Shown here one piece after another: positions 28,466-54,104 of a stretch of 64,000 bases of DNA (positions within the stretch are counted from its first letter, which is position 1; the number at the start of each line of letters is the position of its first letter). Source of the DNA: a virus (taxonomy: Duplodnaviria; Heunggongvirae; Uroviricota; Caudoviricetes); the IMG/VR virus record IMGVR_UViG_3300035701_000014, one strand, 5' to 3'. The position numbers were made by a program, and so were the translations under genes. The notes beneath the pieces were generated by a model that made no database searches, was not told the origin of the DNA, and saw only the letters and a program-made list of their open reading frames with translations.

Positions 28466-29878
28466 ATGAAATTCAATAAGAGAAATGAATCAGAAAAGAT
28501 TCCGAACTATGAAGGAGTGGATGCGTATGTCGAGACTCCAGAGCTCGAGCTCGTGTCCGTGTTGATGACATCCTTCGTGAAAGACCAGTTCTATAGGAGC
28601 GAAAGCGAGGTTCTGACCAAACTGAAGGAGCTCGTCTCAAAGGTCAAGAACAAGAAATTCATAGCTCAGGCAGCAATCTATGCAAGGACAGAATTCGGCA
28701 TGAGGTCAGTCACCCACGTGGTTGCTGGAGAGCTTGCACATGAAGTCAAGGGAGAGGCATGGATGAAGAACTTCTTCAACAAGGTAGTGCACAGACCAGA
28801 TGACATCATGGAGATTCTTACCTATTACATGCATGCATACGGCAAGCCAATTCCAAACTCAATGAAGAAAGGTCTTGCGATGTCATTCAGCAAGTTCAAT
28901 GAATACCAGCTTGCAAAATACAGGGGCGAGCAGGGAGAGCTCAAGCTGCTCGATGCAGTCAACTTGCTGCACCCAAAGCCAACAAAGGACAACAAGAAAG
29001 CATTGGAGAAACTCATGAGCGGGAAGCTGAAGGGAAAGGACACTTGGGAAGTCAAGCTCACAAAGGCAGGTCAGGAAGCGGAGACCGAAGAAGAGAAGGC
29101 AGAGTTGAAAGGCAAGGCATGGAAAGACTTGATTAAAGAGAAAAAGATTGGCTACTTCGCACTATTGAGAAACCTGAGAAACATCCTTGAGCAAGCACCA
29201 GAAGTGAAGAAAGAGGCTCTGGACTTGCTGACTGACAAGGAGCTAATCGGAAAATCCCTAGTGCTGCCGTTCAGGTTCTCAACTGCGGTAAAGCAGATTA
29301 GCGACACAGCCACAGTCAAAGCCATCAACAAGGCTGCAGACATCAGCTTGAGCAACGTGCCGAAGTTCAAGGGGAAGACGGTAATCATGCAGGACGTGTC
29401 AAGCTCAATGGAAGGAAGAACGATGGAAATCGCAGCCCTCTTCGCAGCAGTCCTGTTCAAAGCAAATGAGGCTGATGTCATCCAGTTCGAGTCTCAGGCA
29501 GAGTATAAGAAAGGCTTGAACCCAGATGATTCAGTCCTGTCACTCGCAGAGAAGCTCGAGCTGTCAACTGGTGGAACTAACCTGAATGACGCATACAGGA
29601 TACTGAACAAGCCATACGACAGGATAATCATCCTTTCAGACATGCAGAACTGGGTGGAAGGCGAGACCCCAGACGAAGAGTTCAGGGACTACAAGAAAAA
29701 GTTCAAGGCAGACCCATACATCTATTCATTCGACCTTGCAGGCTACGGGACATTGCAGTTCCCAGAGAGGAAAGTCTATGCACTCGCAGGATTCTCGGAG
29801 AAGGTCTTCGACGTAATGAGATTCCTCGAGGAAGACAAGAATGCGATGATTAACGTCATCAAGGCAGTGGAGCTCTAA
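28466..29878 (+). CDS. Ro60-like TROVE + vWA domain protein
   Basis: 470 aa; C-terminal vWA with MIDAS DVSSSM (DxSxS); about 300-aa N-terminal domain of the length expected for TROVE; architecture matches Ro60/Rsr (from memory). Confidence 0.5.
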   Translation: MKFNKRNESEKIPNYEGVDAYVETPELELVSVLMTSFVKDQFYRSESEVLTKLKELVSKVKNKKFIAQAAIYARTEFGMRSVTHVVAGELAHEVKGEAWMKNFFNKVVHRPDDIMEILTYYMHAYGKPIPNSMKKGLAMSFSKFNEYQLAKYRGEQGELKLLDAVNLLHPKPTKDNKKALEKLMSGKLKGKDTWEVKLTKAGQEAETEEEKAELKGKAWKDLIKEKKIGYFALLRNLRNILEQAPEVKKEALDLLTDKELIGKSLVLPFRFSTAVKQISDTATVKAINKAADISLSNVPKFKGKTVIMQDVSSSMEGRTMEIAALFAAVLFKANEADVIQFESQAEYKKGLNPDDSVLSLAEKLELSTGGTNLNDAYRILNKPYDRIIILSDMQNWVEGETPDEEFRDYKKKFKADPYIYSFDLAGYGTLQFPERKVYALAGFSEKVFDVMRFLEEDKNAMINVIKAVEL

Positions 29879-30462: not shown

Positions 30463-30653
30463 GTGAGAGATATTGGATAACAGGTGCTCAGTTAGGATTG
30501 CTCCAAGTTGCAGCAACCGAAGAATCAAGGAAGTTTGTGATAGATAACATTATAGACAAACAGTTCATCTGCAATTGTTTTACTGAAGAGGCAAAGAAGA
30601 AGTTTGAAGAAGAAGTCGAAAAACTTGCTAAAGGAGTTGGGGAGGGTGCATGA
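30459..30653 (+). CDS. hypothetical small protein
   Basis: ORF track 64 aa. Confidence 0.35.
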   Translation: MSERYWITGAQLGLLQVAATEESRKFVIDNIIDKQFICNCFTEEAKKKFEEEVEKLAKGVGEGA

Positions 30654-31464
30654 AATGCCAGAAGGTGAATTAAAAAACATTCCGATTTCGGACATACTTG
30701 TTTTGGAGAACATACGCTCTAGACTCGACTTGGATGACCTGACATCGCTCATGATGAGCCTAAAGCAAAATGGATTGCTGCAGCCTGTGGGTGTCTATAA
30801 AAAGCGTGATAGTAATAAATACATCTTGAATTGGGGTCACAGGAGATTTGAAGCAGCCAATAAGCTGGGCTGGAAGACCATACCAGCGATGGTATCGAAC
30901 ATAGAGCTTTCTGAGGACGAATTTCTTATTTTAAATGCAATCGAGAATCTCCAGAGGAAGGACAATTCGCCAGTGGAGTTCGGCAGGATTTGTGCAAGGC
31001 TGAAAGAGGATTTCAACTTGTCTGTCAGCGAGATTGCTGCACGGTTGTCAGTCCCGAAGGGCAAGGTCACAAGGGCTATAGAAATCTATTCAAAAGTCCC
31101 GAAAGAACTGCAGCACATAATCGGCTACAGGATTGGCGGGGCAATACCGACTGGAAAGGTATCAGCCACTACCGCAAATGAAATACTGCGTCTGCATCTA
31201 ACTCAGGAAGTTACCACGAACCTTTTCAATGAGGCAAGGAGAAACGAGCTCGGGGTCAAGGACATAAGGCTGATTGGAATAATGATTCAGTCTGGCTCTA
31301 GCCTGCAGGATGCATTGGAAGAGCACCAGAAATACAAGCTGAAGACTGCGTTCCTAGCAGTAAACAAAAAGAAGTGGAAGAGCATCGAAGATTCGCAAGA
31401 TATAACATTCACCGATTTCCTGAGAAAGCTTGTGAAGGGTTACGACAGGGGATTGGTAAAGTAA
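30604..31464 (+). CDS. ParB-like (ParB/Srx N-terminal domain) protein, copy 1
   Basis: 286 aa (TTG start in track; ATG at 30655); NWGHRRFEAANKLGW. Confidence 0.6.
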   Translation: MKKKSKNLLKELGRVHEMPEGELKNIPISDILVLENIRSRLDLDDLTSLMMSLKQNGLLQPVGVYKKRDSNKYILNWGHRRFEAANKLGWKTIPAMVSNIELSEDEFLILNAIENLQRKDNSPVEFGRICARLKEDFNLSVSEIAARLSVPKGKVTRAIEIYSKVPKELQHIIGYRIGGAIPTGKVSATTANEILRLHLTQEVTTNLFNEARRNELGVKDIRLIGIMIQSGSSLQDALEEHQKYKLKTAFLAVNKKKWKSIEDSQDITFTDFLRKLVKGYDRGLVK

Positions 31465-31486
31465 AAATAATAAAGGAGGGATATAG

Positions 31487-32284
31487 ATGAAATATGAATT
31501 GAAAGATGTCCCAATATCCAGCGTCAAGGTATTGGAAAACATAAGGTCGAGAACAGAACCTGCAGACCTCGCCCCGTTGATGGAATCGATTAAGCAGCAT
31601 GGTCTGCTCGCACCAATTGGGGTCTATCCCGAGAAGGGCGAATATATAGTGAGTTGGGGGCACAGGAGACTCGAAGCATGCAGGAAATTGGGTTGGACAA
31701 TAATTCCCGCAGTAGTTCTTGATGAAAAGCTTTCCTATACGGATTTCCTGCTCAAAAATGCGATAGAGAATTTGCACAGGCAGGACAATAGCCCTACAGA
31801 GCTCGGCAGGGTTATAGAGAGGCTGAAGACTGAATGCGAAATGTCAAATGGGGAAATTGCAGTCAGGCTCTCAATGCCAAAAGGCACTGTAGAAAAGTTC
31901 CTGAGAATATACCGTGAGCTCCCAGAAAGCGTGCATAAGGACATAGGCACAAGAGGGAGAGGGCAGAGAACTGTGGTCGGCAAATCATCGGCGACTCTCG
32001 CAAATAGAATCGCCCAGATGAGAATGTCAAGACCCGACAAAGCGAAGTTCATAGAATTCGCAAGGAGTGAAGAGCTCTCGGTAAACGAGCTGCATATCAT
32101 CGAGACGCTGGTTAGAGGGGGCATGACAATCGAACAGGCAGTTAAAGAGAGGGAGAACTGGATTCCGAAGACCGCACATATTGCAGTGAAGAAAAAGAGA
32201 TGGGAGAAACTTTCACAGGAAATGAACTGGGAAGAGTTTGTATGCAAGGCAATCAAGGCATACGACAGGGCACTTCTAGTTTGA
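31487..32284 (+). CDS. ParB-like (ParB/Srx N-terminal domain) protein, copy 2 (tandem paralog)
   Basis: 265 aa; VSWGHRRLEACRKLGW; collinear with copy 1. Confidence 0.6.
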   Translation: MKYELKDVPISSVKVLENIRSRTEPADLAPLMESIKQHGLLAPIGVYPEKGEYIVSWGHRRLEACRKLGWTIIPAVVLDEKLSYTDFLLKNAIENLHRQDNSPTELGRVIERLKTECEMSNGEIAVRLSMPKGTVEKFLRIYRELPESVHKDIGTRGRGQRTVVGKSSATLANRIAQMRMSRPDKAKFIEFARSEELSVNELHIIETLVRGGMTIEQAVKERENWIPKTAHIAVKKKRWEKLSQEMNWEEFVCKAIKAYDRALLV

Positions 32285-32293
32285 GGTGAGACA

Positions 32294-32626
32294 ATGGAAG
32301 TGTATGTTAAGTTCAACAACGGGAAGGTAGGCTGGATTCCATTAGAATCAATTCTGCCTGCTGGAACGAAACCACCGATGCCAAAGAAGAAACATATCCC
32401 AGAACAGATACTTGAAGCTTTGGAGCTTGCCGAGAAGGCTAACACGCCATTGACAAAGATGCAACTAGCAAATGATACGGGGATAAAAGAAGGAACGCTG
32501 AATGTCTCCCTTCTCGACTTATATAGAAAAGGAATAGTGAAAAGGATACCAGCAACTCAGAATGGGCATCTGGTATTCCAGTATGCTATGGATAGGAGTA
32601 TCGATAAGAGCAAGGTGGAACAATGA
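32294..32626 (+). CDS. winged-helix DNA-binding protein
   Basis: 110 aa; TKMQLANDTGIKEGTLNVSLLDLYRKGIVKRI. Confidence 0.4.
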   Translation: MEVYVKFNNGKVGWIPLESILPAGTKPPMPKKKHIPEQILEALELAEKANTPLTKMQLANDTGIKEGTLNVSLLDLYRKGIVKRIPATQNGHLVFQYAMDRSIDKSKVEQ

Positions 32627-33801
32627 CCGAAGCGTTTTATTACATTGTAGCCCTCTTCATTTTTGGAGGAATCATAGTAACGAAACCAGACCTCCTTTCA
32701 GAAGCCTTGAGTTTCCTAGGGGTCTTGGGCGGGTATTTTTCTGATATTTTTTCGAATCTGAATTCGGCAAATAAAGCTGCAAATAGAAATGTTGTTAAGC
32801 TAAAAAAAAGAGGTGAGATTGTGCCAGAGGAATCAGGTAATGTATTAAAAATAGTCTTTGCGGTTGTAGCAGGAATCTTCCTGTTATGGTTTGCATCGCA
32901 ATGTATAGAGAGGATAGACACGGGTTACAAAGGAGTGATATACAATGCGTGGTCTGGACTTGATGAACAAACAACATGGGACAGTGGATGGCATCTGAAA
33001 GTTCCGATACTGCAGAGCATCACCAATGTGCCAATATCGAGGCAAACCGTGAATATGTATGGGGTCAACTTTGACAAGGATTGCAAGCCATACCCTGATT
33101 GCGATGACATGGCAATCCAAGTGCCAAGCAAGGAAGGGTTGATAATAACCGTAGATGTTACGGTATTCTTCAGAGTCAACCCTGCCAAAACACCGCAGGT
33201 TGTGAAGCAATTGACAATGAACTATAAGGAAGGGACAGTCATGCCACTCATGAGAAGTGTCGTGAGGGATGTGGCTGGTCAGATGACAATAACAGAACTC
33301 TACGGGTCAGGCAGGGAAAAGCTGGAATCGGAAATGACTACAAGACTAACGGAATATATGAACAAGGACAACCTGATACTAGAGGGAGTCTTGATAAGGG
33401 ATGTCGAGATGCCTGCACAGATAAAGCAATCAATCCAAGACAAGATGACTGCGGAGCAGACAAGTCTTCAGAAGGACTACGAAATCCAGATTGCCCAGAA
33501 GGAGGCAAACAGAACTGTTACAGAGGCAAAAGGAAGAGCCGATGCTGCTGCATTGCAGAAGACCATTGATGCACAGGCACAGGCAACTGCCACAGTCTTG
33601 ACAGCTCAGGCAAATGCAAACAAGACCATTCTGGAAGGATTGGCTCAGGCACAAGCTATAGAGGCAATCAACAAGCAACTCGCACAGAGTCCACAATATG
33701 TGCAACTGAGGTATGCAGAGCAGTGGGACGGTAAGCTTCCGTTGTATATGCTAGGAGGCGCACTCCCATTGATTAACATACCGACGAATGCAACAAGATG
33801 A
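32623..33801 (+). CDS. SPFH/band-7 (stomatin/prohibitin-like) membrane protein
   Basis: 392 aa; N-terminal TM, SPFH-like core (YNAWSGLDEQ..GWHLKVPILQSI..), Ala/Gln-rich coiled-coil C-terminus. Confidence 0.5.
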   Translation: MTEAFYYIVALFIFGGIIVTKPDLLSEALSFLGVLGGYFSDIFSNLNSANKAANRNVVKLKKRGEIVPEESGNVLKIVFAVVAGIFLLWFASQCIERIDTGYKGVIYNAWSGLDEQTTWDSGWHLKVPILQSITNVPISRQTVNMYGVNFDKDCKPYPDCDDMAIQVPSKEGLIITVDVTVFFRVNPAKTPQVVKQLTMNYKEGTVMPLMRSVVRDVAGQMTITELYGSGREKLESEMTTRLTEYMNKDNLILEGVLIRDVEMPAQIKQSIQDKMTAEQTSLQKDYEIQIAQKEANRTVTEAKGRADAAALQKTIDAQAQATATVLTAQANANKTILEGLAQAQAIEAINKQLAQSPQYVQLRYAEQWDGKLPLYMLGGALPLINIPTNATR

Positions 33802-39800: not shown

Positions 39801-41081
39801 GTGGCATTGAAACACGTCACATTGGATGGAGTCAGGCTACATCTGAAGACCGATGAGATGAAACTCTGGGTCAATGGATACTACATCTTATTCCTGAACA
39901 AGACCGCATCCGCAATCTTCGAGGCATTCATAGACAGTTGTTACGAAGTCCCAAGGGAAAAAATAGTGGAAACCACTATCAACAAAATCACAAAGAAGTT
40001 CAAGGTCAACAAGGAGACTGCAGAGAAAGACCTGCACCAGCTCATCGGGATAGTCAATAGCCTCGCAAGGAATGAGATACCCACTCACCTTATTGGAGTG
40101 AAGAATATCGAATGCGGGAGCAAGACTGCCCCAAACAGGATGGACTTGTCATTATCCTATAACTGCAACAACCGATGCTCATTCTGCTACCTGCCGAAGA
40201 ACGAGAATGAAAATGGGACTCTTGCGACATGGCAATGGAAGCAAGTCATACATAGACTGTGGAAGATTGGCATTCCACAGATTGTCTTCACTGGAGGGGA
40301 ATGCACTCTCAGGGATGATTTGCTGGAGCTCGTGAGATTCAGTAAGGAGTTCGTCACTGGGATAATCTCAAACGGGACAAACATAACCCCCGAGCTTGCG
40401 AAAGATTTGAAAAAGGCGGATTTGGACTGGATTCAGATTACTCTCGAGACCCCGAATCCAACAGTCCATGATGAGATGCAGGGAAGGAAAGGTGCATGGA
40501 AGGAAACAGTCAGGGGAATAAGGAATTGTGTCGATGCTGGTCTGCAGGTGAGTATCAATGCGACTCTGACAAAGGAAAACTTTGTGGACTTGCCTGCCCT
40601 GATAAGGTTCGCAAAGAAGCTGGGAGTCGGCTCTGTGTCAACCAATGCGATAATCCGAGCTGGCAGGGGCATCAAGGCAAAGGATTCTCTTGGTTTGAGC
40701 GAGGAGGTTTTGAAGAAGACTTTGATTGAAGCAAAAGAAGTGGCAAAGAAGGAAGGGATAGGCTTCAACTGGTTCTTGCCTACCTGCTACAAGAAGCTCA
40801 ACCCAGTGGAGCTCGGATTCGGTCAGAGAGCTTGCTCCGCCTGCTCGATAAATATGATGGTAGAGCCGAATGGGGATGTGATTCCATGCCAAAGCTGGAC
40901 AGGACTAAAACTCGGCAACATTCTGAATGACAAATGGGAATCAATATGGAATAAGAAGGAAGCACAGGAGATAAGGGCATCAAGATATGCAGACCCGAAG
41001 TGCCAAGGCTGCAAATACTTCAGTATGTGCAAAGGTGCGTGCCCGTTGGATAAGCTGAATGGATGTTACAGAGGTGTATGA
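39801..41081 (+). CDS. radical SAM enzyme with C-terminal SPASM domain and about 110-aa N-terminal extension
   Basis: 426 aa; CNNRCSFC (CX3CX2C); C-terminal CSACS...CQ...CQGCKYFSMCKGACP; N-terminal extension could be an RRE-like domain. Confidence 0.65.
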   Translation: MALKHVTLDGVRLHLKTDEMKLWVNGYYILFLNKTASAIFEAFIDSCYEVPREKIVETTINKITKKFKVNKETAEKDLHQLIGIVNSLARNEIPTHLIGVKNIECGSKTAPNRMDLSLSYNCNNRCSFCYLPKNENENGTLATWQWKQVIHRLWKIGIPQIVFTGGECTLRDDLLELVRFSKEFVTGIISNGTNITPELAKDLKKADLDWIQITLETPNPTVHDEMQGRKGAWKETVRGIRNCVDAGLQVSINATLTKENFVDLPALIRFAKKLGVGSVSTNAIIRAGRGIKAKDSLGLSEEVLKKTLIEAKEVAKKEGIGFNWFLPTCYKKLNPVELGFGQRACSACSINMMVEPNGDVIPCQSWTGLKLGNILNDKWESIWNKKEAQEIRASRYADPKCQGCKYFSMCKGACPLDKLNGCYRGV

Positions 41082-46765: not shown

Positions 46766-46837
46766 AGCCGATGGAGAGACTCGAACTCCCAGCTTCGTCC
46801 TTACAGGGGACGCACTCTACCATTGAGTTACATCGGC
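46766..46837 (-). tRNA. tRNA-Thr(TGT), anticodon loop CCTGTAA with C at position 33
   Basis: manual fold: GCCGATG/CATCGGC acceptor, D ACTC-AATGGTA-GAGT, AC stem CGTCC/GGACG, T arm GGGAG-TTCGAGT-CTCTC; no encoded CCA. Confidence 0.55.
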
Positions 46838-47478
46838 AACTTGTTTAACCTTGATTTTTTATCCTCGCTTATCTTCTTCAGGTTTTCCTCCTTTGGTAAC
46901 CACCTATGATTCTCAGGTGCGAATGCGAGCTTCACCTGTTCTAGGTCTGTCAGGTCGAATGAACACAATGCTTTGATGTGGTCAACTACATACTCCCCTT
47001 CAGGTTTCTTGCCTAGGTGCTGAATAATTGCGTTATAATCAATTCCATACTCATCTACATGAAGCTTTTTTCCCTCACCATACTGTTTGAGAGCCACATT
47101 CAATCGTTTACGCAATCGGTTACAAATAACAAAACTTTCATCAGTCTTACTCTTTATAAAGCGATATGCTCTCTTCTGTGCTTTGACCTCGGGTAGTCGA
47201 CGATATTCTACTATCCATTCCTTATATTCTGGTGTCTGCTGATATATCTTTTTTCTTACCTTCACTTCAAGTCTCTGTCCATACCCCACCATATACTCTC
47301 CTTTTTGCATTTTAACTTCGGATAATTGGTCATAAGCGTTTTTCTTTGCTTTTACTTTAGGGCGTTGGCGATATTCCTTCAGATATTTTTTTCTCTTAGG
47401 TAACTGGGTATAATGTCTACTGCATACACCTTTTGCAAGAATCTCTCTTCCACATCCTTCAACTGAGCAAATTTCCAT
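46828..47478 (-). CDS. HNH homing endonuclease (paralog) inserted in the tRNA array
   Basis: 216 aa; CSVEGCGREILAKGVCSRHY; HVDHIKALCSFDLTDLEQVKLAFAPENHRWLPKEENLKK. Confidence 0.65.
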   Translation of the reverse strand: MEICSVEGCGREILAKGVCSRHYTQLPKRKKYLKEYRQRPKVKAKKNAYDQLSEVKMQKGEYMVGYGQRLEVKVRKKIYQQTPEYKEWIVEYRRLPEVKAQKRAYRFIKSKTDESFVICNRLRKRLNVALKQYGEGKKLHVDEYGIDYNAIIQHLGKKPEGEYVVDHIKALCSFDLTDLEQVKLAFAPENHRWLPKEENLKKISEDKKSRLNKLPM

Positions 47479-47491
47479 ATTCTCACTTTAA

Positions 47492-47564
47492 GGCTGAGAG
47501 TCGGGACTTGCACCCAAACCAAAGGTGTCACAGACCTCTATGCTACTATTACACCACTCCAGCC
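47492..47564 (-). tRNA. tRNA-His(GTG) with genomically encoded G-1
   Basis: AC arm GAGGT-CTGTGAC-ACCTT; G-1 opposite discriminator C; T loop TGCAAGT. Confidence 0.6.
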
Positions 47565-47567
47565 ATA

Positions 47568-47640
47568 CGCCCCGAGTCAGAATCGAACTGACAACCAACG
47601 GGTTAACAGCCCGCTACTCTATCCGTTGAGCTATCGGGGC
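47568..47640 (-). tRNA. tRNA-Asn(GTT)
   Basis: GCCCCGA/TCGGGGC acceptor; AC loop CTGTTAA; T arm GTCAG-TTCGATT-CTGAC. Confidence 0.7.
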
Positions 47641-47717
47641 ATTCTATTTTTCAAATCCTAGGATTCCGCATTTCAATTCCTAGGGCAATGTTCACTATTT
47701 AGTGAACACCACTTTCA

Positions 47718-47788
47718 TGCTCCGAGAGAGAATCGAACTCCCATGTTCGGGTCTTCAGCCCGACGTTCTCCCATTGAACTATCAGAGC
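47718..47788 (-). tRNA. tRNA-Phe(GAA)
   Basis: AC arm TCGGG-CTGAAGA-CCCGA; T arm GGGAG-TTCGATT-CTCTC. Confidence 0.7.
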
Positions 47789-47791
47789 AAA

Positions 47792-47875
47792 CGCCGAGGG
47801 CAGGATTCGAACCCACATTGCCCTCATCGGACTTCAGTTTTCAGGACTGACACCCTACCATTAGGTGACCTCGGC
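47792..47875 (-). tRNA. tRNA-Ser(TGA)-like type-II tRNA (long variable arm), loop CCTGAAA (C33)
   Basis: GCCGAGG/CCTCGGC acceptor; AC arm TCAGT-CCTGAAA-ACTGA; variable-arm hairpin GTCC-GATGA-GGGC; T loop TTCGAAT. Confidence 0.5.
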
Positions 47876-47876
47876 A

Positions 47877-47948
47877 TGCTCCCAATCGGGTTCGAACCGA
47901 TGACCTTCAGCTTATCAGACTGTTGCTCTACCACTGAGCTATGGGAGC
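47877..47948 (-). tRNA. tRNA-Ile(GAT)
   Basis: GCTCCCA/TGGGAGC acceptor; AC loop CTGATAA; T arm ATCGG-TTCGAAC-CCGAT. Confidence 0.6.
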
Positions 47949-48137
47949 TCACAAATCCTTGACCATGTTTTTCATATATCCCTTACCATGCGTATATCCC
48001 TCATCATATCCTTTCTTCCAAGCGAGTGCCTTTTCGCAAGGGCATATCTTCCCATTCCATTTCCACATGCAGCCCTCGCACTGTGCCAGAGGAAAGAAAA
48101 ATTTACCCCGATTCTCTTCTTCCATCTCAATCACCAT
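47949..48137 (-). CDS. small Cys-rich protein between tRNAs (hypothetical)
   Basis: ORF track 62 aa; CEGC...C.C. Confidence 0.3.
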   Translation of the reverse strand: MVIEMEEENRGKFFFPLAQCEGCMWKWNGKICPCEKALAWKKGYDEGYTHGKGYMKNMVKDL

Positions 48138-48142
48138 TTAAG

Positions 48143-48265
48143 TGGAGGAGAGGGGATTCGAACCCCCGAGCCACTTAGGCAACTGGTTTCTCAATCAAGT
48201 AATTTGATTGCTTTAGGCTACTTAACGTCTAAGCCAGCCACATTACCTGATTCTGTCACTCCTCC
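48143..48265 (-). tRNA. tRNA-like element, unresolved (canonical T arm + 7-bp GGAGGAG/CTCCTCC acceptor but about 120 nt; intron-containing, aberrant or pseudo)
   Basis: GGGGG-TTCGAAT-CCCCT T arm and a perfect 7-bp acceptor pair; I could not fold the D/anticodon region by hand. Confidence 0.3.
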
Positions 48266-48269
48266 ATAA

Positions 48270-48342
48270 TGGGGTCGGAGAGATTCGGACTCTCATAGCC
48301 AACTCCCAAGGCTGACCGCCTCCCAGACTAGCTCACGACCCC
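48270..48342 (-). tRNA. tRNA-Pro(TGG)
   Basis: GGGGTCG/CGACCCC acceptor; AC arm TCAGC-CTTGGGA-GTTGG (G37); T arm GAGAG-TCCGAAT-CTCTC. Confidence 0.6.
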
Positions 48343-48347
48343 ATCAA

Positions 48348-48421
48348 CGGGGACGGAGGGATTTGAACCCTCACTCGCAAGTCCGTAGCTTGCTTTCCTA
48401 TCCAGTTAGATTTACGCCCCC
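48348..48421 (-). tRNA. tRNA-Arg(ACG)
   Basis: AC arm GCAAG-CTACGGA-CTTGC; T arm GAGGG-TTCAAAT-CCCTC. Confidence 0.65.
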
Positions 48422-48591
48422 TTCACTCTTTTCTGAAAGACAATATTCCCATTATCCTCAAGCACTCCGTCATAGCCGAGGTCATCAAATGCCTTCCTTA
48501 TCTTCTCCAGCTCGGTCAAGGGAAACTCTCCCTCAAACACTGTCAGCTTCACGTTCCCCTGCATTATCTTTTTTTCTTCTTCACTTGCCAT
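48412..48591 (-). CDS. small hypothetical protein between tRNAs (track ORF 48412..48687 trimmed to the internal Met to avoid tRNA-Asp)
   Basis: MASEEEKKIMQGNVKLTVFEGEF...; overlaps the tRNA-Arg 5' end by about 10 nt. Confidence 0.25.
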   Translation of the reverse strand: MASEEEKKIMQGNVKLTVFEGEFPLTELEKIRKAFDDLGYDGVLEDNGNIVFQKRVKGA

Positions 48592-48603
48592 ATTATCCCT
48601 CAA

Positions 48604-48676
48604 CGCCTCAGCCGAGATTTGAACTCGGAACTCCAGCTTGACAAGCTGGGATGTTTGCCAATTACAACACCGAGGC
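48604..48676 (-). tRNA. tRNA-Asp(GTC)
   Basis: AC arm CCAGC-TTGTCAA-GCTGG; T arm CCGAG-TTCAAAT-CTCGG. Confidence 0.7.
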
Positions 48677-48679
48677 AAT

Positions 48680-48752
48680 TGCTCCAACAGAGACTTGCAC
48701 TCTGGTCACGAGGCTGAGAACCTCGCATCCTTGGCTACTAGACGATTGGAGC
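48680..48752 (-). tRNA. tRNA-Glu(CTC)
   Basis: GCTCCAA/TTGGAGC; D arm GTCTAGTAGCCAAGGAT; AC arm CGAGG-TTCTCAG-CCTCG; T loop TGCAAGT. Confidence 0.65.
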
Positions 48753-48784
48753 AGTTCTTTGTTAAACATGTTAAACCCGTTAAA

Positions 48785-48859
48785 TGTTCCCGACGAGATT
48801 TGAACTCGTGCCTTCAGGGTGAAAGCCTGACATCCTTAGCCGTGCTAGACGACGGGAAC
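48785..48859 (-). tRNA. tRNA-Glu(TTC)
   Basis: GTTCCCG/CGGGAAC; AC arm TCAGG-CTTTCAC-CCTGA; T arm ACGAG-TTCAAAT-CTCGT. Confidence 0.7.
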
Positions 48860-49056
48860 TTCTCTTTGATTTTCGGAGGTGGGAAGTGAAGTATATCTGC
48901 ATCTATCCGCACATGACCTCGTTCTTCCTTCAGGTCATTCCAAATGCAGAGGTGCAGATGCGGATACTTCTTCTGTATCTCCTCAATCTCTGCTATGAAT
49001 TTATCCAGTTCCGAATAATCAAATTTCTTTTCTTCCATACTATCACCTACAACCAC
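48814..49056 (-). CDS. small hypothetical protein
   Basis: ORF track 80 aa; overlaps tRNA-Glu(TTC), so doubtful. Confidence 0.2.
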   Translation of the reverse strand: MVVGDSMEEKKFDYSELDKFIAEIEEIQKKYPHLHLCIWNDLKEERGHVRIDADILHFPPPKIKEKFPSSSTAKDVRLSP

Positions 49057-49292
49057 TTCTCAATCGATTCAGGAGTCACAAGCTCCACGTCGGTTATCAG
49101 TATGCAACTGCGATTCAGCTCAGGTCGGTATCCTATCTCCTTGGTGACCATGAGCAGCTCGTCGTGTGCCTTGTTTATTTTATCCTTTAGCTCGTCACTA
49201 CAACGGACATCAGGATTCATTCTAAGCAACTCCTGCACATCCTCAGACATATCGATGTCAATAATTTTTTTCACGTTTCCCATGTTCCTCAC
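49047..49292 (-). CDS. small hypothetical protein
   Basis: ORF track 81 aa, acidic. Confidence 0.3.
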   Translation of the reverse strand: MRNMGNVKKIIDIDMSEDVQELLRMNPDVRCSDELKDKINKAHDELLMVTKEIGYRPELNRSCILITDVELVTPESIEKWL

Positions 49293-49296
49293 CTCA

Positions 49297-49370
49297 TGAG
49301 CCTGATGGGATTTTAACCCATGACCTTCTGGTTAAAAGCCAGTCGCTCTGACAAACTGAGCTACAGGCTC
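49297..49370 (-). tRNA. tRNA-Lys(TTT)
   Basis: GAGCCTG/CAGGCTC; AC loop CTTTTAA; T loop TTAAAAT. Confidence 0.65.
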
Positions 49371-49374
49371 ACCA

Positions 49375-49448
49375 CGAACCCGACGGGATTCCAACCCATG
49401 ACCTGTCGGTTAAGAGCCGACTGCTCTAGCAAACTGAGCTACGGGTTC
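49375..49448 (-). tRNA. tRNA-Lys(CTT)
   Basis: GAACCCG/CGGGTTC; AC arm GTCGG-CTCTTAA-CCGAC. Confidence 0.7.
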
Positions 49449-49451
49449 ACA

Positions 49452-49522
49452 TACGGCTAGAGGGATTTGCACCCTCGTCGAGAACTTGGAGGGCTCTCAT
49501 CCTGCTACTAGACGATAGCCGT
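49452..49522 (-). tRNA. tRNA-Gly(TCC), loop CCTCCAA (C33)
   Basis: ACGGCTA/TAGCCGT; AC arm AGAGC-CCTCCAA-GTTCT; T arm GAGGG-TGCAAAT-CCCTC. Confidence 0.55.
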
Positions 49523-49525
49523 GCA

Positions 49526-49597
49526 TGGGGGCGAGGAGATTTGAACTCCCACAAGCAGCTCTGGGGGCTGCCTTCCTGCCAGTTAGATAACGTCCCC
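49526..49597 (-). tRNA. tRNA-Trp(CCA), loop CCCCAGA (C33)
   Basis: AC arm GCAGC-CCCCAGA-GCTGC; T arm GGGAG-TTCAAAT-CTCCT; one A.C mismatch in the acceptor. Confidence 0.5.
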
Positions 49598-49598
49598 A

Positions 49599-49670
49599 TA
49601 GCCACAGCAGGAATCGAACCTGCACCGTTGCTTTGTAAGAGCAACATCCTACCGTTAGAATCATGTGGCT
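49599..49670 (-). tRNA. tRNA-Val(TAC)
   Basis: AGCCACA/TGTGGCT; AC arm TTGCT-CTTACAA-AGCAA; T arm GCAGG-TTCGATT-CCTGC. Confidence 0.7.
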
Positions 49671-49676
49671 GCAGTA

Positions 49677-49777
49677 TAGCCCTAGGAGGACTTGCACCTC
49701 CGTCTCTGGATTTCCCCAGCCAAGTTCAGAATCTGGTCTTCAAAGTCCAGCATCCTTGGCTACTAGACCATAGAGCT
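49677..49777 (-). tRNA. tRNA-Gln(TTG) with about 28-nt intron at canonical 37/38 (archaeal-type)
   Basis: AGCTCTA/TAGGGCT acceptor (one G-U); AC 5' stem CTGGA + CTTTGA, intron at about 49711-49738, then A-TCCAG; T arm GGAGG-TGCAAGT-CCTCC. Confidence 0.55.
49711..49738 (-). other. putative tRNA-Gln intron (bulge-helix-bulge-type, 37/38 position)
   Basis: AGACCAGATTCTGAACTTGGCTGGGGAA interrupts the anticodon loop; the 3' anticodon stem TCCAG follows. Confidence 0.45.
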
Positions 49778-49781
49778 ACCT

Positions 49782-49855
49782 TAGCCAGAACCAGATTTGA
49801 ACTGGTGTTCTCGGGTTATGAGCCCGATGCCCTGACCATGCTAGACCATCTGGCT
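49782..49855 (-). tRNA. tRNA-Met(CAT) (elongator or initiator undetermined)
   Basis: AGCCAGA/TCTGGCT; AC arm TCGGG-CTCATAA-CCCGA; T arm ACCAG-TTCAAAT-CTGGT. Confidence 0.65.
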
Positions 49856-49856
49856 A

Positions 49857-49927
49857 TACGGTTGCTGGGAGTCGAACCCAGCCCGCAAGCATGGCAAGCT
49901 CGCATCATACCGCTAGACTACAACCGT
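49857..49927 (-). tRNA. tRNA-Gly(GCC)
   Basis: ACGGTTG/CAACCGT; AC arm CGAGC-TTGCCAT-GCTTG; T arm CTGGG-TTCGACT-CCCAG. Confidence 0.65.
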
Positions 49928-49933
49928 ATTGCA

Positions 49934-50034
49934 TGGAGCTGCAGGGACTCGAACCCCGAGCCTCCTGCTTTTTTGGTCGTTGAGTATCTCAACAATCTGC
50001 AAAGCAGACGTTCTACCAATTGAACTACAGCCCC
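49934..50034 (-). tRNA. tRNA-Ala(TGC) with about 28-nt intron at 37/38; G3:U70 identity pair present
   Basis: GGGGCTG/CAGCTCC acceptor with G3-U70; AC TCTGC-TTTGCA-[intron about 49970-49997]-A-GCAGG; T arm CGGGG-TTCGAGT-CCCTG. Confidence 0.6.
49970..49997 (-). other. putative tRNA-Ala intron containing hairpin GTTGAG-ATA-CTCAAC
   Basis: GATTGTTGAGATACTCAACGACCAAAAA between anticodon-loop positions 37 and 38. Confidence 0.45.
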
Positions 50035-50044
50035 TTCCAATGAA

Positions 50045-50115
50045 TCTGGGCTGGAGGAGTTGAACCACCACTTACGGGTTTACAGCCCGTCGTGATACCA
50101 TTTCACCAAGCCCAG
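50045..50115 (-). tRNA. tRNA-Tyr(GTA), type I (short variable arm, archaeal/eukaryal style)
   Basis: CTGGGCT/AGCCCAG; D GTGA-AATGGTA-TCAC; AC arm ACGGG-CTGTAAA-CCCGT. Confidence 0.65.
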
Positions 50116-50399
50116 AACAAAGATGATAGCAGAAAAGAGATTTCTTAACAACCTTGTTCTTTCGACAACATGCTTGGATAATTATCTCCCGTGATAAAAC
50201 TAGCTCTCGGCTGCCACGCCTTTACTGTGACTAAATGCGGGAGTTTCATATACCTTACCTTGCTGCTTTCATTATATATAAACCTTTCGTTTCTCCGAGT
50301 CTAGAGAGCACAAGCAATCCAATCCCACGTGCACTTAGAGATTGTTTTTATATAACGGGATGTTAATCCCATTACTCTCTCCAGATTGCTTATGCTTTT

Positions 50400-50459: not shown

Positions 50460-51101
50460 ATGAAGGTCGCCTTGTATGCACGTGTCTCAACTACCGACAA
50501 GGGACAGAACCCAGAAATCCAACTGCAGCCCATGCGGGAGCGTGCAAAGAGTGAAAACTGGGAAATCTACAAGGAATATATAGACCGTGAGACAGGAACT
50601 GATTTTGAAAGAAAATATTGGGAGCAGCTCATGGAGGATGCAAAACACCATAAGTTCGATGCCGTCTATTTCTGGAGTCTCGACAGGTTCAGCAGGGTCG
50701 GAGTGTTCGAGTCAATCGAAATCCTCAACAGGATTCGCTCCTATGGAATCCGTTACATCTCCCATCAGGAATGGTTTCTCAATACAATGGGAAGCTTCGG
50801 GGATGTGCTCGTAGCTCTCTTCCTCTGGATGGCTCAGCAGGAAAGCAAGCGTCATGGGGAGAGAGTCTTGGCTGGCATGAACCCAATACTCGAAAGCCAC
50901 AAGCGTCTTGGAGTTTGGAAAACCAAATCAGGCAAACCAATTGGAAGACCGCAACTGAAACTAGATGCAGTTATCCTTGCCAAGATAAAGAAGCTCCACT
51001 TGGAAGGTGCGAGCCTGCGTGAAATCAGATACAGGCTGCTGAAAGAAGATGGAGTCAAGGTTTCTCACTCCAAGCTGGGAAAGATTTTCAAAAGCCATTA
51101 A
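50460..51101 (+). CDS. serine recombinase (resolvase/invertase family)
   Basis: 213 aa; MKVALYARVSTTDKGQNPEIQ catalytic-Ser motif; ..RFSR..; C-terminal HTH. Confidence 0.75.
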   Translation: MKVALYARVSTTDKGQNPEIQLQPMRERAKSENWEIYKEYIDRETGTDFERKYWEQLMEDAKHHKFDAVYFWSLDRFSRVGVFESIEILNRIRSYGIRYISHQEWFLNTMGSFGDVLVALFLWMAQQESKRHGERVLAGMNPILESHKRLGVWKTKSGKPIGRPQLKLDAVILAKIKKLHLEGASLREIRYRLLKEDGVKVSHSKLGKIFKSH

Positions 51102-51880: not shown

Positions 51881-52777
51881 TTATTTATTTTGCTGGGTGT
51901 TTTCCTCTTTTAGTTTCAGATATTTTCTCATTGCAACATTTCTGACTAACATCGCTGTAGGGTATCCACATCCGAACTCTGCCATGATGTCTGGTATCTT
52001 CAATCGCAGCTTACCATCCACTTCCTTGATGATATTCTTGGCTATCACTGCATCCACTAGCTGATTCACTGCAACCTGCTTGTCCTGCTGTGCTGCGTTC
52101 ATCTCCGCTATATCCGTCCTCACCTCTTCCTTCAGCCTTCTTGAGAAGCTCTTTTTTATCTGTTCATACTCCTCGCAGAACCTTGGAGGCGGTTTGGGAA
52201 TCCTGAGTTCTTTCACTTTTATATTTTGCCCCCTGTAATTCACATTCGGGAATTTGAAATAAGTCTTGCTGAACCTCGGGGAATATTCCACATTCATCGG
52301 CTTGACCACAACATACTCCTCGGAATACATTATCCTGACAGTTTCAAAGTAATGATGGAAAAGCCTGCGGGTCTGCGAGTCTATGAAGTCGAATGACGGC
52401 GTTGTGAATATCACGCAGATGTTGTAGTTCCTGAATGTCTGCAGCAGGAAGTTGATTGCCTTGTTACTCACCGTCCACCATAGCCTCGAGGGAATCCCGA
52501 CCCCCGCCTCGTCCCAGACAACGACGCTTCCCTTCGGAGGTTTTCCTGCATCTATGTCTATCATCTCGATGAAGTCTTCGGCTCTGAAGACGACTCGCTC
52601 CTTGACAGTAAAATCAGAATCAATCCTTCTGGCGAGCTCCAAGGCAGAATAAGACTTTCCAGAATTGTGCGTTATAATCCCATTCTTCAAGATAAAATTA
52701 TGGAAGTCTGGAACTATCAAATCTGCCGTTTCTTCTTCCTTTTGTGGCTCTATGCTGATAACTCTCTCGAAATGCAT
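51881..52777 (-). CDS. split-intein C-fragment (IntC, about 38 aa) fused to the C-extein of a P-loop NTPase (putative genome-packaging ATPase)
   Basis: 298 aa; N-terminal ..DLIVPDFHNFILKNGIITHN|SGKSY.. resembles DnaE-type IntC ending HN + Ser(+1); Walker B VVVWDEAG. Confidence 0.65.
   Translation of the reverse strand: MHFERVISIEPQKEEETADLIVPDFHNFILKNGIITHNSGKSYSALELARRIDSDFTVKERVVFRAEDFIEMIDIDAGKPPKGSVVVWDEAGVGIPSRLWWTVSNKAINFLLQTFRNYNICVIFTTPSFDFIDSQTRRLFHHYFETVRIMYSEEYVVVKPMNVEYSPRFSKTYFKFPNVNYRGQNIKVKELRIPKPPPRFCEEYEQIKKSFSRRLKEEVRTDIAEMNAAQQDKQVAVNQLVDAVIAKNIIKEVDGKLRLKIPDIMAEFGCGYPTAMLVRNVAMRKYLKLKEENTQQNK
52664..52777 (-). other. IntC split-intein segment
   Basis: 38 codons before the +1 Ser; block-G-like HN. 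Confidence 0.6.
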
Positions 52778-53670
52778 TCTTTCAACCTCTCATCATTTTT
52801 GATTATGTCTTCAGTCAAATGAATAATCTGAATTCCAAGTCCAACAAACTGCCTATCTCTTTCTGCTTCCATCTTCACGTCGGAATGCCATTTTTTTCCA
52901 TCTGCTTCAAAAATAGTTTTTAGAAGTGGAAAATAGAAATCTGGAAATTTGAAACCACCATTTGTAGCTAGATAATAGTTATATACAAAATCATAATCAT
53001 CAAAGCAATCTTCTATAGAATCCTTTTCAGAACATCCAAAAGTAAACAAAGCCCCTTTTACCTTGTTCTCCAACTTCGTAATATGATTTCTACGAAGGAT
53101 AAAATTTGGATGTTTTTCAGGATGTTCCAAGAATAGCTTCTTCATATCATCGCTTTTTTTATTTCTTACCTCTAGCCTCTTTGATGGATTATCTATCCTA
53201 TTCCTCATACTCACATATTCCAATCGTTTGCCATAATTCGGACTCTTATGGGTCTCGAAATACTCCAATTGAGATTTTTGCATTTTTTCTTTGGTTTTTT
53301 GATTCTTCATAGGATTGTCAATCAAATTCCTATATATGCGGGCACAGCTCTTTGAACAGAATCTTCTTTCTTGATTGTGCGTTTCAAACACATTCTTACA
53401 CTGTTGGCAAGTTATTTTTATTAATCCTTCCCCTTTGTTATACGGGGTAAGTTTCCCTTCTCTATATAACCTCCTACGGGCTTCGGAAATATTTTGTTTG
53501 CGTTCTATAGTGAATTTTTTGCCCAATTGAGATTTACCTATCTTTCTTCTCGTTTTTTCAGAATGATGTCGCCCATACATAATTTTGTTGAACCCCTGAT
53601 TATAAGTCTGGCATCTATGCGAACAATACTTCAAATTTGAAGTTTCATTTCCGCACTCTATACAATACAT
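52750..53670 (-). CDS. free-standing homing-endonuclease-like protein between the split-intein halves (zinc ribbon + basic repeats + nuclease-like C-terminus)
   Basis: 306 aa; MYCIECGNE..CSHRC; repeated K/R-rich modules; role inferred from its position within the fractured gene. Confidence 0.4.
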   Translation of the reverse strand: MYCIECGNETSNLKYCSHRCQTYNQGFNKIMYGRHHSEKTRRKIGKSQLGKKFTIERKQNISEARRRLYREGKLTPYNKGEGLIKITCQQCKNVFETHNQERRFCSKSCARIYRNLIDNPMKNQKTKEKMQKSQLEYFETHKSPNYGKRLEYVSMRNRIDNPSKRLEVRNKKSDDMKKLFLEHPEKHPNFILRRNHITKLENKVKGALFTFGCSEKDSIEDCFDDYDFVYNYYLATNGGFKFPDFYFPLLKTIFEADGKKWHSDVKMEAERDRQFVGLGIQIIHLTEDIIKNDERLKECISRELSA

Positions 53671-54104
53671 ATTTCATCGCCTATTTTTATATCTCGTAAT
53701 GGTCTCTCTACAATCCTACCTCTAGTCTTGACAAAAAATTTATGGTCTCCAGTAGCCTTCACAGATTTTCCAGATGATGTTTTCAATAGGAATACTTTTT
53801 TGATACCAGATGGCTTCACTATTGCATAAGAGAATTTTGTTTTCTTTTTCAAAAAATCAAACACTTTGACATCTACACTAGCTTCTATCACAGACTTTCC
53901 AATGAGGTCATCCAACGTTTTGATACCCCTAGAAGTGCAAATTCGAGTATCCAGAGACAAGCACCCCGTAGCCCCGCATACGATTGCAAGCTCGTTTCCA
54001 TTCCTCGAAAGCATCTTTTGCCTTGCGTTGTAGCAAATCTGGTTTAACGCATACTCGTAGAGCGGGTCGTCCAATTTTGTCAAAAGCTCACCCAAATCAC
54101 CCAA
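53658..54104 (-). CDS. N-extein (47 aa, ends ..AIVCGATG) of the P-loop NTPase fused to split-intein N-fragment (IntN, about 101 aa)
   Basis: 148 aa, TTG start; CLSLDTRI... and ..ATGDHKFFVKTRGRIVERPLRDIKIGDEI resemble DnaE IntN (..ATKDHKFMTVDGQMLPIDEI..). Confidence 0.65.
   Translation of the reverse strand: MGDLGELLTKLDDPLYEYALNQICYNARQKMLSRNGNELAIVCGATGCLSLDTRICTSRGIKTLDDLIGKSVIEASVDVKVFDFLKKKTKFSYAIVKPSGIKKVFLLKTSSGKSVKATGDHKFFVKTRGRIVERPLRDIKIGDEICIV
53661..53963 (-). other. IntN split-intein segment
   Basis: starts at Cys48 (CLSLDT), ends at the stop after GDEICIV. Confidence 0.6.

Follow-up and report, generated by a model that had tools for sequence, protein, structure and literature searches.

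Archaeal virus-encoded transfer RNAs (tRNAs) have hardly been studied, and there is one well-known large set, that of Halogranum tailed virus 1 (HGTV-1; Hagravirus capitaneum, NC_021328), whose genome we examined directly. HGTV-1, a cultured haloarchaeal myovirus, carries 34 to 36 tRNA genes, one of them intron-bearing, together with RNA ligases, a CCA-adding enzyme and RtcB (PMC13532342, PMC8651126). Jumbo and T4-like phages of bacteria likewise have clustered tRNA genes with short spacers, HNH genes nearby and tRNA-repair enzymes (Thg1-like protein, RNA ligase and Pnkp). Here we describe an array in the uncultivated IMG/VR virus record IMGVR_UViG_3300035701_000014, of which a stretch of 64,000 nucleotides (nt), hereafter the window, was analyzed. 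The array consists of 22 minus-strand tRNA genes within 3.35 kb (46766 to 50115), three of which contain introns at the position, and with the bulge-helix-bulge (BHB) geometry, of archaeal pre-tRNA introns. We read it, with a probability of about 0.8, as the near-complete tRNA set, with BHB introns that can be spliced, of a mobile element of archaea that is most likely part of the genome of a large virus. HGTV-1 is a published precedent with the same architecture. New here are the three introns instead of one, a different set of RNA-repair genes, and a distinct lineage whose GC content, about 43% over the window compared with an average of 55.2% in the tRNAs of HGTV-1, would fit a nonhalophilic host.

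The tRNA array and its layout

ARAGORN called 19 intronless tRNAs, all on the minus strand (46766 to 50116), and the Rfam tRNA model RF00005 gave 21 matches of 39.9 to 72.6 bits, the gathering score being 29 bits. The two matches beyond those of ARAGORN are 101-nt genes (49677-49777, anticodon UUG, and 49934-50034, anticodon UGC), in both of which the Rfam alignment places about 30 inserted nt right after the anticodon (nt 36). The 22nd gene, a 123-nt pre-tRNA-Leu(UAG) (48143-48265), has an insert of 40 nt; its 7-bp acceptor stem is perfect, its T arm canonical and its variable arm long, and its anticodon is UAG. Unspliced, it receives no tRNA call from the general covariance model, only a tRNA-like match in the transfer-messenger RNA (tmRNA) clan; once spliced in silico, it completes the count. 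A permissive scan of the array's spacers and flanks detected no further tRNA-like genes. An earlier sequence-only reading of this DNA had counted the same 22 genes in the same interval; ARAGORN accepted most of its candidates rather than rejecting them, and all 21 of its isotype and anticodon assignments match ours. The one gene that it had counted without naming an isotype is the tRNA-Leu(UAG). The array, with its interspersed open reading frames (ORFs), is laid out as follows, in the direction of the tRNA genes.

46766-50115, minus: complete array, with 22 clustered tRNA genes, four small ORFs and one HNH gene
50045-50115, minus: tRNA-Tyr(GUA), 71 nt, class I, short variable loop, C1-G72, A73
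49934-50034, minus: pre-tRNA-Ala(UGC), 101 nt, G3:U70, A73
49970-49997, minus: Ala intron, 28 nt, between nt 37 and 38; internal helix h' 7/8 bp, closing an AUA loop
49857-49927, minus: tRNA-Gly(GCC), A73
49782-49855, minus: initiator-type tRNA-Met(CAU), A1-U72, three G-C pairs closing the anticodon stem
49677-49777, minus: pre-tRNA-Gln(UUG), 101 nt, A1-U72, A73
49712-49739, minus: Gln intron, 28 nt, between nt 37 and 38; weaker than those of Ala and Leu
49599-49670, minus: tRNA-Val(UAC), called by ARAGORN and Rfam
49526-49597, minus: tRNA-Trp(CCA), G1-C72, A73; Rfam score of 39.9 bits, the lowest in the array
49452-49522, minus: tRNA-Gly(UCC), A73
49375-49448, minus: tRNA-Lys(CUU), called by ARAGORN and Rfam
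49297-49370, minus: tRNA-Lys(UUU), called by ARAGORN and Rfam
49047-49283, minus: small ORF, 78 aa, with the Shine-Dalgarno sequence GAGGTGAGG; starts 13 nt past tRNA-Lys(UUU)
48814-49038, minus: small ORF, 74 aa, overlapping tRNA-Glu(UUC)
48785-48859, minus: tRNA-Glu(UUC), called by ARAGORN and Rfam
48680-48752, minus: tRNA-Glu(CUC), called by ARAGORN and Rfam
48604-48676, minus: tRNA-Asp(GUC), called by ARAGORN and Rfam
48412-48591, minus: small ORF, 59 aa, stop codon within tRNA-Arg
48348-48421, minus: tRNA-Arg(ACG), A34; low score of 42.5 bits
48270-48342, minus: tRNA-Pro(UGG), called by ARAGORN and Rfam
48143-48265, minus: pre-tRNA-Leu(UAG), 123 nt, class II, long variable arm, A73
48188-48227, minus: Leu intron, 40 nt, between nt 37 and 38; h' 9 bp
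47949-48125, minus: small ORF rich in Cys, 58 aa, Shine-Dalgarno sequence GGTGA; stop codon abuts tRNA-Ile
47877-47948, minus: tRNA-Ile(GAU), top Rfam score, 72.6 bits
47792-47875, minus: tRNA-Ser(UGA), class II
47718-47788, minus: tRNA-Phe(GAA), called by ARAGORN and Rfam
47568-47640, minus: tRNA-Asn(GUU), called by ARAGORN and Rfam
47492-47564, minus: tRNA-His(GUG), encoded G-1 (47564) opposite C73 (47492)
46828-47478, minus: HNH endonuclease ORF, 216 aa, PHROG matches; stop codon within tRNA-Thr
46766-46837, minus: tRNA-Thr(UGU), U73; last gene of the array

The array comes close to one tRNA per amino acid, with 19 amino acids and the initiator represented and Cys and elongator Met absent. 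There is a U34 tRNA for each represented four-codon box (Ala, Pro, Thr, Val, Ser, Leu and Gly) and a G34 tRNA for each pyrimidine-ending pair, and both Lys and both Glu isoacceptors are encoded. The array leaves codons for Cys, elongator Met, Ile(AUA), Arg(AGR), Leu(UUR) and Ser(AGY) unserved and is able to read about 72% of the element's codons. CCA is encoded in none of the 22 genes, and tRNA-Tyr is of the short type I, as the earlier reading had stated in both cases.

Spacers within the clusters measure 1 to 10 nt, several of them 1, 3 or 4 nt, the exceptions being one 32-nt spacer, one 77-nt spacer and four gaps that contain ORFs. The earlier description of genes packed 1 to 6 nt apart is thus nearly right inside the clusters but does not hold for the array as a whole. 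A T directly follows the discriminator in 19 of the 22 genes. The HNH ORF, which had already been seen to interrupt the array, matches PHROG HNH families and carries a DH...N...H/N motif. ORFs in the array finish inside or flush against the next tRNA gene: the HNH ORF and ORF 48412-48591 have their TAA stops at nt 8 to 10 of tRNA-Thr and tRNA-Arg, respectively, ORF 47949-48125 is flush with nt 1 of tRNA-Ile, and ORF 48814-49038 extends 45 nt into tRNA-Glu(UUC). RNase P cleavage would thus cut off or shorten the stop codons of these ORFs. The 77-nt spacer between tRNA-Phe and tRNA-Asn (47641-47717, minus) contains two perfect hairpins, GTGTTCACT...AGTGAACA and CCTAGGA...TCCTAGG, which could be a processing or termination signal.

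HGTV-1 shares this layout. Its tRNA genes also form a single-strand array, with members 1 to 8 nt apart, small ORFs and homing endonuclease genes (two HNH and one LAGLIDADG) between the clusters, and ORFs that abut or overlap neighboring tRNAs. Like the element described here, it has no close sequence relatives in the annotated collection.

Three introns with bulge-helix-bulge geometry

The inserts lie exactly between nt 37 and 38 in tRNA-Ala(UGC) (28 nt), tRNA-Gln(UUG) (28 nt) and tRNA-Leu(UAG) (40 nt). The sequence-only reading had placed the Ala and Gln introns exactly, in site and length; its count of two intron-bearing genes rises to three with Leu. After removal of the introns in silico, ARAGORN called clean tRNA-Leu(tag), tRNA-Gln(ttg) and tRNA-Ala(tgc) genes, the spliced Leu being an 84-nt class II tRNA in this call. 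When its intron detection was turned on, ARAGORN instead named the Ala gene Cys(gca), in a register off by one, and this call was rejected on the basis of G3:U70, A73 and the Rfam register.

In the canonical 37/38 register, the 5' bulge consists of nt 36, nt 37 and the first intron nt and is followed by the intron-internal helix h'; nt 32 to 35 pair with intron nt n-5 to n-2 in the 4-bp central helix (H); and the 3' bulge, which adjoins the anticodon stem, consists of the last two intron nt and nt 38. All three inserts show this arrangement in the register fixed by the cloverleaf, with 4/4 bp in H, two 3-nt bulges and splice sites two nt into each bulge, and the 5-bp anticodon stem (helix h) is complete in each precursor.

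Ala BHB: H UUUG/CAAA, 5' bulge CAG, 3' bulge AAA, h' 7/8 paired
Gln BHB: H CUUU/GGGG (one G-C and three G.U pairs), 5' bulge GAA, 3' bulge AAA, h' 6/8 paired
Leu BHB: H CUUA/UGAG, 5' bulge GAC, 3' bulge AAA, h' 8/8 paired

When the introns were shuffled and the exons held fixed, only 0.2 to 1% of shuffles per gene combined 4/4 bp in H with three or more of the first four h' pairs, and the joint chance of the exact register in all three genes is about 1e-6 to 1e-7. The register test passes on three positive controls, HGTV-1 tRNA-Ala and two chance recoveries, a tRNA-Lys (locus L053) and a tRNA-Phe (locus L057), from contigs taken to be archaeal and cellular. By position, bulges and helices, the three inserts have the form of canonical archaeal BHB pre-tRNA introns.

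The same features (the 37/38 site, a 4-bp helix with nt 32 to 35, two 3-nt bulges, an internal h' and the register) characterize BHB introns of cellular archaea. Those described here differ in sitting on a mobile element rather than a chromosome and in that all three 3' bulges are AAA. Euryarchaea usually have introns in tRNA-Trp and tRNA-Met, not in tRNA-Ala, tRNA-Gln and tRNA-Leu. The closest viral counterpart is the tRNA-Ala(UGC) of HGTV-1, whose 31-nt intron, also at 37/38, fits the canonical hBHBh' register and has its central helix, UUUG/CAAA, in common with the Ala gene of the element. The spliced Ala tRNAs are identical at 52 of 75 aligned positions and the introns are unrelated; given 3 intron-bearing genes among 22, an intron shared in this gene is within chance (about 0.1). 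A common origin or recent transposition of the three introns was considered and rejected, their similarity not exceeding chance. A group I self-splicing intron was rejected too, since the inserts of 28, 28 and 40 nt compare with more than about 200 nt and a P1-P9 core, and an Rfam scan of the array detected no intron family.

Domain of life and the carrier element

Several tRNAs carry identity elements of archaeal or eukaryal type: C1-G72 in tRNA-Tyr (acceptor CTGGGCT...AGCCCAG, A73), A1-U72 in the initiator (AGCCAGA...TCTGGCT A, with CGGGCTCATAACCCG), G1-C72 and A73 in tRNA-Trp, A73 in both tRNA-Gly genes and U73 in tRNA-Thr. The meaning of such elements for the domain of life is established knowledge of tRNA identity. 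The anticodon arm of the initiator is that of an archaeal cellular initiator on locus L057. Gene organization is prokaryotic: Shine-Dalgarno cores precede 62 of 109 ORFs (22.5 +/- 4.1 in controls), 5-mers of the sequence precede 36 (3.8 +/- 1.8 in controls), the motifs being most frequent at -8 to -13, and 4-nt overlaps of the ATGA type occur in 17 gene pairs. Together, the identity elements and the gene organization point to Archaea. The sequence-only reading had listed archaeal hallmarks and deduced an archaeal host with a splicing endonuclease. The BHB register and the elements of Tyr, initiator Met, Trp, Gly and Thr bear out the hallmarks, tRNA-Arg(ACG) with its A34 not being one of them, and the host is supported by the register, the identity elements, the prokaryotic gene organization and the G-1:C73 of tRNA-His.

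Up to about 46.6 kb, the genes of the window are plus-strand genes; a minus-strand block spans 46.7 to 60 kb and has the array at its end. The following could be assigned.

3380-4081, plus: Thg1-like tRNA-His guanylyltransferase or 3'-5' polymerase (phrog_4717, E 8e-70)
7264-8184: PCNA-type clamp
10478-11485, plus: RlaP, RNA-repair-pathway nucleotidyltransferase of the Pol-beta family (E 9e-51)
13226-13768, plus: calcineurin-like metallophosphoesterase, candidate end-healing enzyme
15640-16518, plus: ATP-dependent RNA ligase (PF09414/PF09511)
28466-29878, plus: TROVE/Ro60 protein with a vWA domain
30604-32284: two ParB-like genes
32623-33801, plus: SPFH/Band-7 protein
39801-41081, plus: radical SAM/SPASM enzyme
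about 43.9-44.3 kb, plus: YbjQ-family protein
50460-51101, plus: serine recombinase (resolvase and helix-turn-helix), on the strand opposite to the array and immediately upstream of it
about 51881-54104, minus: intein-bearing P-loop ATPase (Zot/DnaA-like), called as three overlapping ORFs

Further genes in the window include several HNH genes and one for a DUF5131 protein, and most ORFs have no family. The tRNA-repair gene set that the sequence-only reading had invoked (Thg1-like protein, RlaP, metallophosphoesterase, RNA ligase and TROVE/Ro60) is real. The Thg1-like protein is about 41% identical to bacterial-phage homologues; the G-1 already encoded in tRNA-His of the array suggests that it acts in the repair of 5' ends and not in adding G-1. 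A TROVE/Ro60 protein with vWA is unusual for an archaeal element. No Y-RNA family was found in the gaps flanking its gene, and YrlA-like matches were sub-threshold only and all fell on tRNAs of the array. The radical SAM/SPASM, SPFH/Band-7 and YbjQ-family proteins are auxiliary genes of cellular type. The serine recombinase, possibly a small inserted mobile element, separates the array from the remaining minus-strand block, and the P-loop ATPase gene appears to contain an intein with an endonuclease domain of the NUMOD3/DUF559 type. Cumulative GC skew peaks at about 46.0 to 46.7 kb, where the plus and minus gene blocks converge just downstream of the array; this could mark a replication terminus or merely reflect transcription-strand bias. 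A 202-aa ORF (14327-14935, plus) has a weak match to the C-terminal domain of ribosomal protein eL19 (Pfam E 7e-5, sub-cut-off; PDB eL19 E 0.04), which may be a basic low-complexity resemblance only. The source contig is 81 kb long, from a genome of possibly greater size, and 73.5 kb of it (the window and 9.5 kb upstream) were examined. The upstream 9.5 kb encode a topoisomerase, an HNH protein and a transposase-like protein and contain no tRNAs and no virion genes.

Relatives were sought in several collections. RlaP and a 25-mer from the Ala exon had no match in IMG/VR; in a set of 5.8 billion proteins, an array-adjacent ORF and the PCNA homologue were orphans; GTDB genomes gave no match to the SPFH protein or to an RNA-ligase alignment, and IMG/VR none to the latter; and array DNA, the PCNA homologue and a 913-aa ORF found no relative among annotated phages. 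Searches with array DNA, PCNA and the 913-aa protein also revealed no homology to HGTV-1. Other assemblies of the element are 100% identical and so provide no natural variants for comparison. Scanning IMG/VR and JGI metagenomes for a tRNA-Lys pattern recovered 89 loci, none of which has a protein in common with the element. Dense arrays in this set are of bacterial-phage type, and most of the other loci have one or two tRNAs and look cellular, two of these carrying archaeal A1-U72 initiators.

The RNA ligase is the element's single link to other contigs, which are archaeal-virus-like. Its identity is 42.5% to a gene of a tailed virus from mangrove sediment, a virus assigned to Methanofastidiosa, and its large, uncharacterized metagenomic family comprises 227 proteins at E <= 1e-5, the listed members being 50 to 63% identical. 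The family recurs on long contigs (loci L100-L105 and L010), and members share a contig with genes for an RFC-type clamp loader and archaeosine precursors or with an intein-bearing PolB, PriX and Topo VI-A; no tRNAs were found within 10 kb of these homologues. In the contig collection, 70 blocks contain one and the same family member. Searches of PDB sequences with the ligase and with the phosphoesterase gave no useful information.

We conclude that the carrier is an archaeal mobile element and probably a fragment of a large virus genome. Several results weigh against this reading of the array and its introns. The BHB folds of Gln, with three G.U pairs in its H helix, and of Ala each lie 5.8 kcal/mol above the minimum free energy (MFE), and an A-run in the Ala precursor permits an alternative fold with a symmetric internal loop. 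Nearest-neighbor energy models penalize bulges, and the Leu hBHBh' fold is within 0.2 kcal/mol of its MFE. A blind, SPLITS-like scan for loose BHB motifs was nonspecific (168 matches in the array, 140 +/- 16 in shuffles) and was dropped as evidence; because such motifs are common by chance, the evidence lies in the motif coinciding with independently set cloverleaf boundaries. No homologue of the array was found in the collections searched, so the intron helices have no support from covariation. The A34 of tRNA-Arg(ACG) is atypical for archaea, which normally use G34 and have neither A34 tRNAs nor a tRNA A34 deaminase; no such deaminase was detected among the window ORFs. HGTV-1 also has an A34 tRNA, Ala(AGC). 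The anticodons of the array do not track the codons of the element, 77% of whose Arg codons are AGA or AGG and 42% of whose Ile codons are AUA, neither of which is served. tRNA-Arg(ACG) itself cannot read AGA or AGG. Finally, EndA and RtcB had no Pfam match among the approximately 98 window ORFs, and no capsid, portal or terminase gene occurs in the 73.5 kb, so that the earlier attribution to a big virus is not proven.

The energies and the blind scan would suit an account in which the Ala, Gln and Leu genes are not spliced but are pseudogenes, anticodon-nuclease decoys or regulatory RNAs, the 19 intronless genes alone supplying tRNAs, and odd or degenerate tRNAs are often present in viral arrays. 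We consider this unlikely. The exons are intact, with full acceptor, D and T arms, G3:U70 in Ala and A73 plus the long variable arm in Leu; these are the sole Ala, Gln and Leu genes in an otherwise one-per-amino-acid set; and the exact register in all three is hardly expected by chance, as calculated above. The missing virion genes, together with the serine recombinase beside the array and the transposase-like gene upstream, would instead agree with a tRNA cluster of an archaeal chromosome or of an old integrated element that is not an autonomous virus or plasmid. That origin seems less probable still, given that there are no housekeeping genes, that most ORFs are orphans even against the 5.8 billion proteins, and that no GTDB genome has relatives of the proteins tested. 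HNH genes, the intein, phage-family matches (Thg1, topoisomerase and DUF5131) and long single-strand gene blocks argue in the same direction, and the combination of a one-tRNA-per-amino-acid set with RNA-repair genes mirrors viral arrays such as that of HGTV-1.

The remaining alternatives concern the domain of life. Because the archaeal-type identity elements are also eukaryotic, a giant eukaryotic virus (Nucleocytoviricota), with 37/38 introns spliced by the Sen complex, had to be excluded. Introns at this site, a class I Tyr with C1-G72, an A1-U72 initiator, PCNA, Thg1 and Ro60 are common to archaea and eukaryotes, and giant viruses carry tRNA clusters, some of them intron-bearing (PMC9894930). 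What makes such an origin very improbable is the strong Shine-Dalgarno enrichment at -8 to -13, the 4-nt overlaps and the G-1 that tRNA-His encodes opposite C73, where eukaryotes have A73 and add G-1 later; in addition, HNH, ParB, RlaP and DUF5131 are encoded in the window, and homologues of the ligase lie on archaeal-type contigs. Least probable of all, to the point of being nearly negligible, is the array of a bacterial jumbo phage with inserts that are not BHB introns, even though large tRNA arrays, Thg1-like proteins and HNH genes are common in bacterial phages, tRNA-Arg(ACG) is of bacterial type and some of the tRNAs are about 80% identical to bacterial-phage tRNAs. Bacterial tRNA-Tyr is class II with G1-C72, as in the dense arrays of the pattern scan (loci L076, L029 and L012; 87 nt in, for example, L076 and L012), whereas here it is class I with C1-G72. 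The initiator has A1-U72, not a C1xA72 mismatch, and the clamp is of the PCNA rather than the beta type. Bacteria lack a BHB endonuclease, and the introns in tRNAs of bacteria and their phages belong to the self-splicing group I, whose length exceeds 200 nt and for which inserts of 28 to 40 nt are far too short. In its archaeal identity set, BHB introns and PCNA-type clamp, the element thus stands apart from the bacterial phages whose arrays it otherwise resembles.

Proposed processing and function

For the archaeal mobile element that we favor, transcription, processing, splicing in vivo and biological purpose can be inferred from the genes and their arrangement. The tRNA genes form four tight clusters on a single strand, with the HNH gene and small ORFs led by Shine-Dalgarno sequences in between. 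Their transcription probably yields one polycistronic precursor or a few, from which host RNase P and tRNase Z would release the individual tRNAs. A CCA-adding enzyme would be needed for the 3' ends because no array gene encodes CCA. The Ala(UGC), Gln(UUG) and Leu(UAG) precursors would in addition be spliced, the BHB being the substrate of the archaeal endonuclease EndA. Euryarchaeal alpha4 and alpha'2 endonucleases accept only strict canonical BHB introns (PMC4090602); with their strictly canonical form, the introns of the element would suit any archaeal host. Since neither EndA nor RtcB was detected in the window, splicing would most likely be carried out by the host's EndA and RtcB. The element's own ATP-dependent ligase could in principle join the tRNA halves together with the phosphoesterase, in a heal-and-seal route like that proposed for the Rnl2 ligases of HGTV-1 (PMC8651126).

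The array likely serves to maintain viral translation if the tRNAs of the host become limiting or are depleted or cleaved. This corresponds to the view held for bacterial phages, whose tRNAs are thought to sustain translation upon depletion or cleavage of host tRNAs (PMC13532342), so that the presumed role is also the same in the jumbo and T4-like phages. The RNA-repair genes (Thg1-like, RlaP, phosphoesterase, RNA ligase and Ro60) fit such a purpose. Seen from the side of the element, whose codon preferences the anticodons do not match, a simple "codon-usage patch" has little support.

A more far-reaching possibility is that the introns are adaptive for the virus, that its own heal-and-seal enzymes join the halves and that the Ala(UGC) intron in two unrelated viruses reflects selection. 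The pairing of nt 32 to 35 in the BHB helix would then mask the anticodon loops of three U34 tRNAs until late in maturation, which could protect them from host anticodon nucleases or couple maturation to splicing, and the RNA ligase, phosphoesterase and RlaP would do the joining instead of host RtcB. We regard this proposal as speculative and doubtful.

The equipment of HGTV-1 differs in part. RNA ligase genes are common to both, lying elsewhere on the genome in HGTV-1, which also encodes RtcB, a CCA-adding enzyme and LysRS (PMC8651126). The element has the Thg1-like protein, RlaP, Ro60/TROVE and phosphoesterase instead, RtcB being undetected in the window. The array described here extends a poorly sampled phenomenon and does not introduce a new principle. 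The same design in unrelated lineages suggests that it recurs in large archaeal mobile elements. Its three compact pre-tRNAs are testable substrates for asking if the splicing of viral pre-tRNAs requires enzymes of the host and if a viral ligase can take the place of RtcB.

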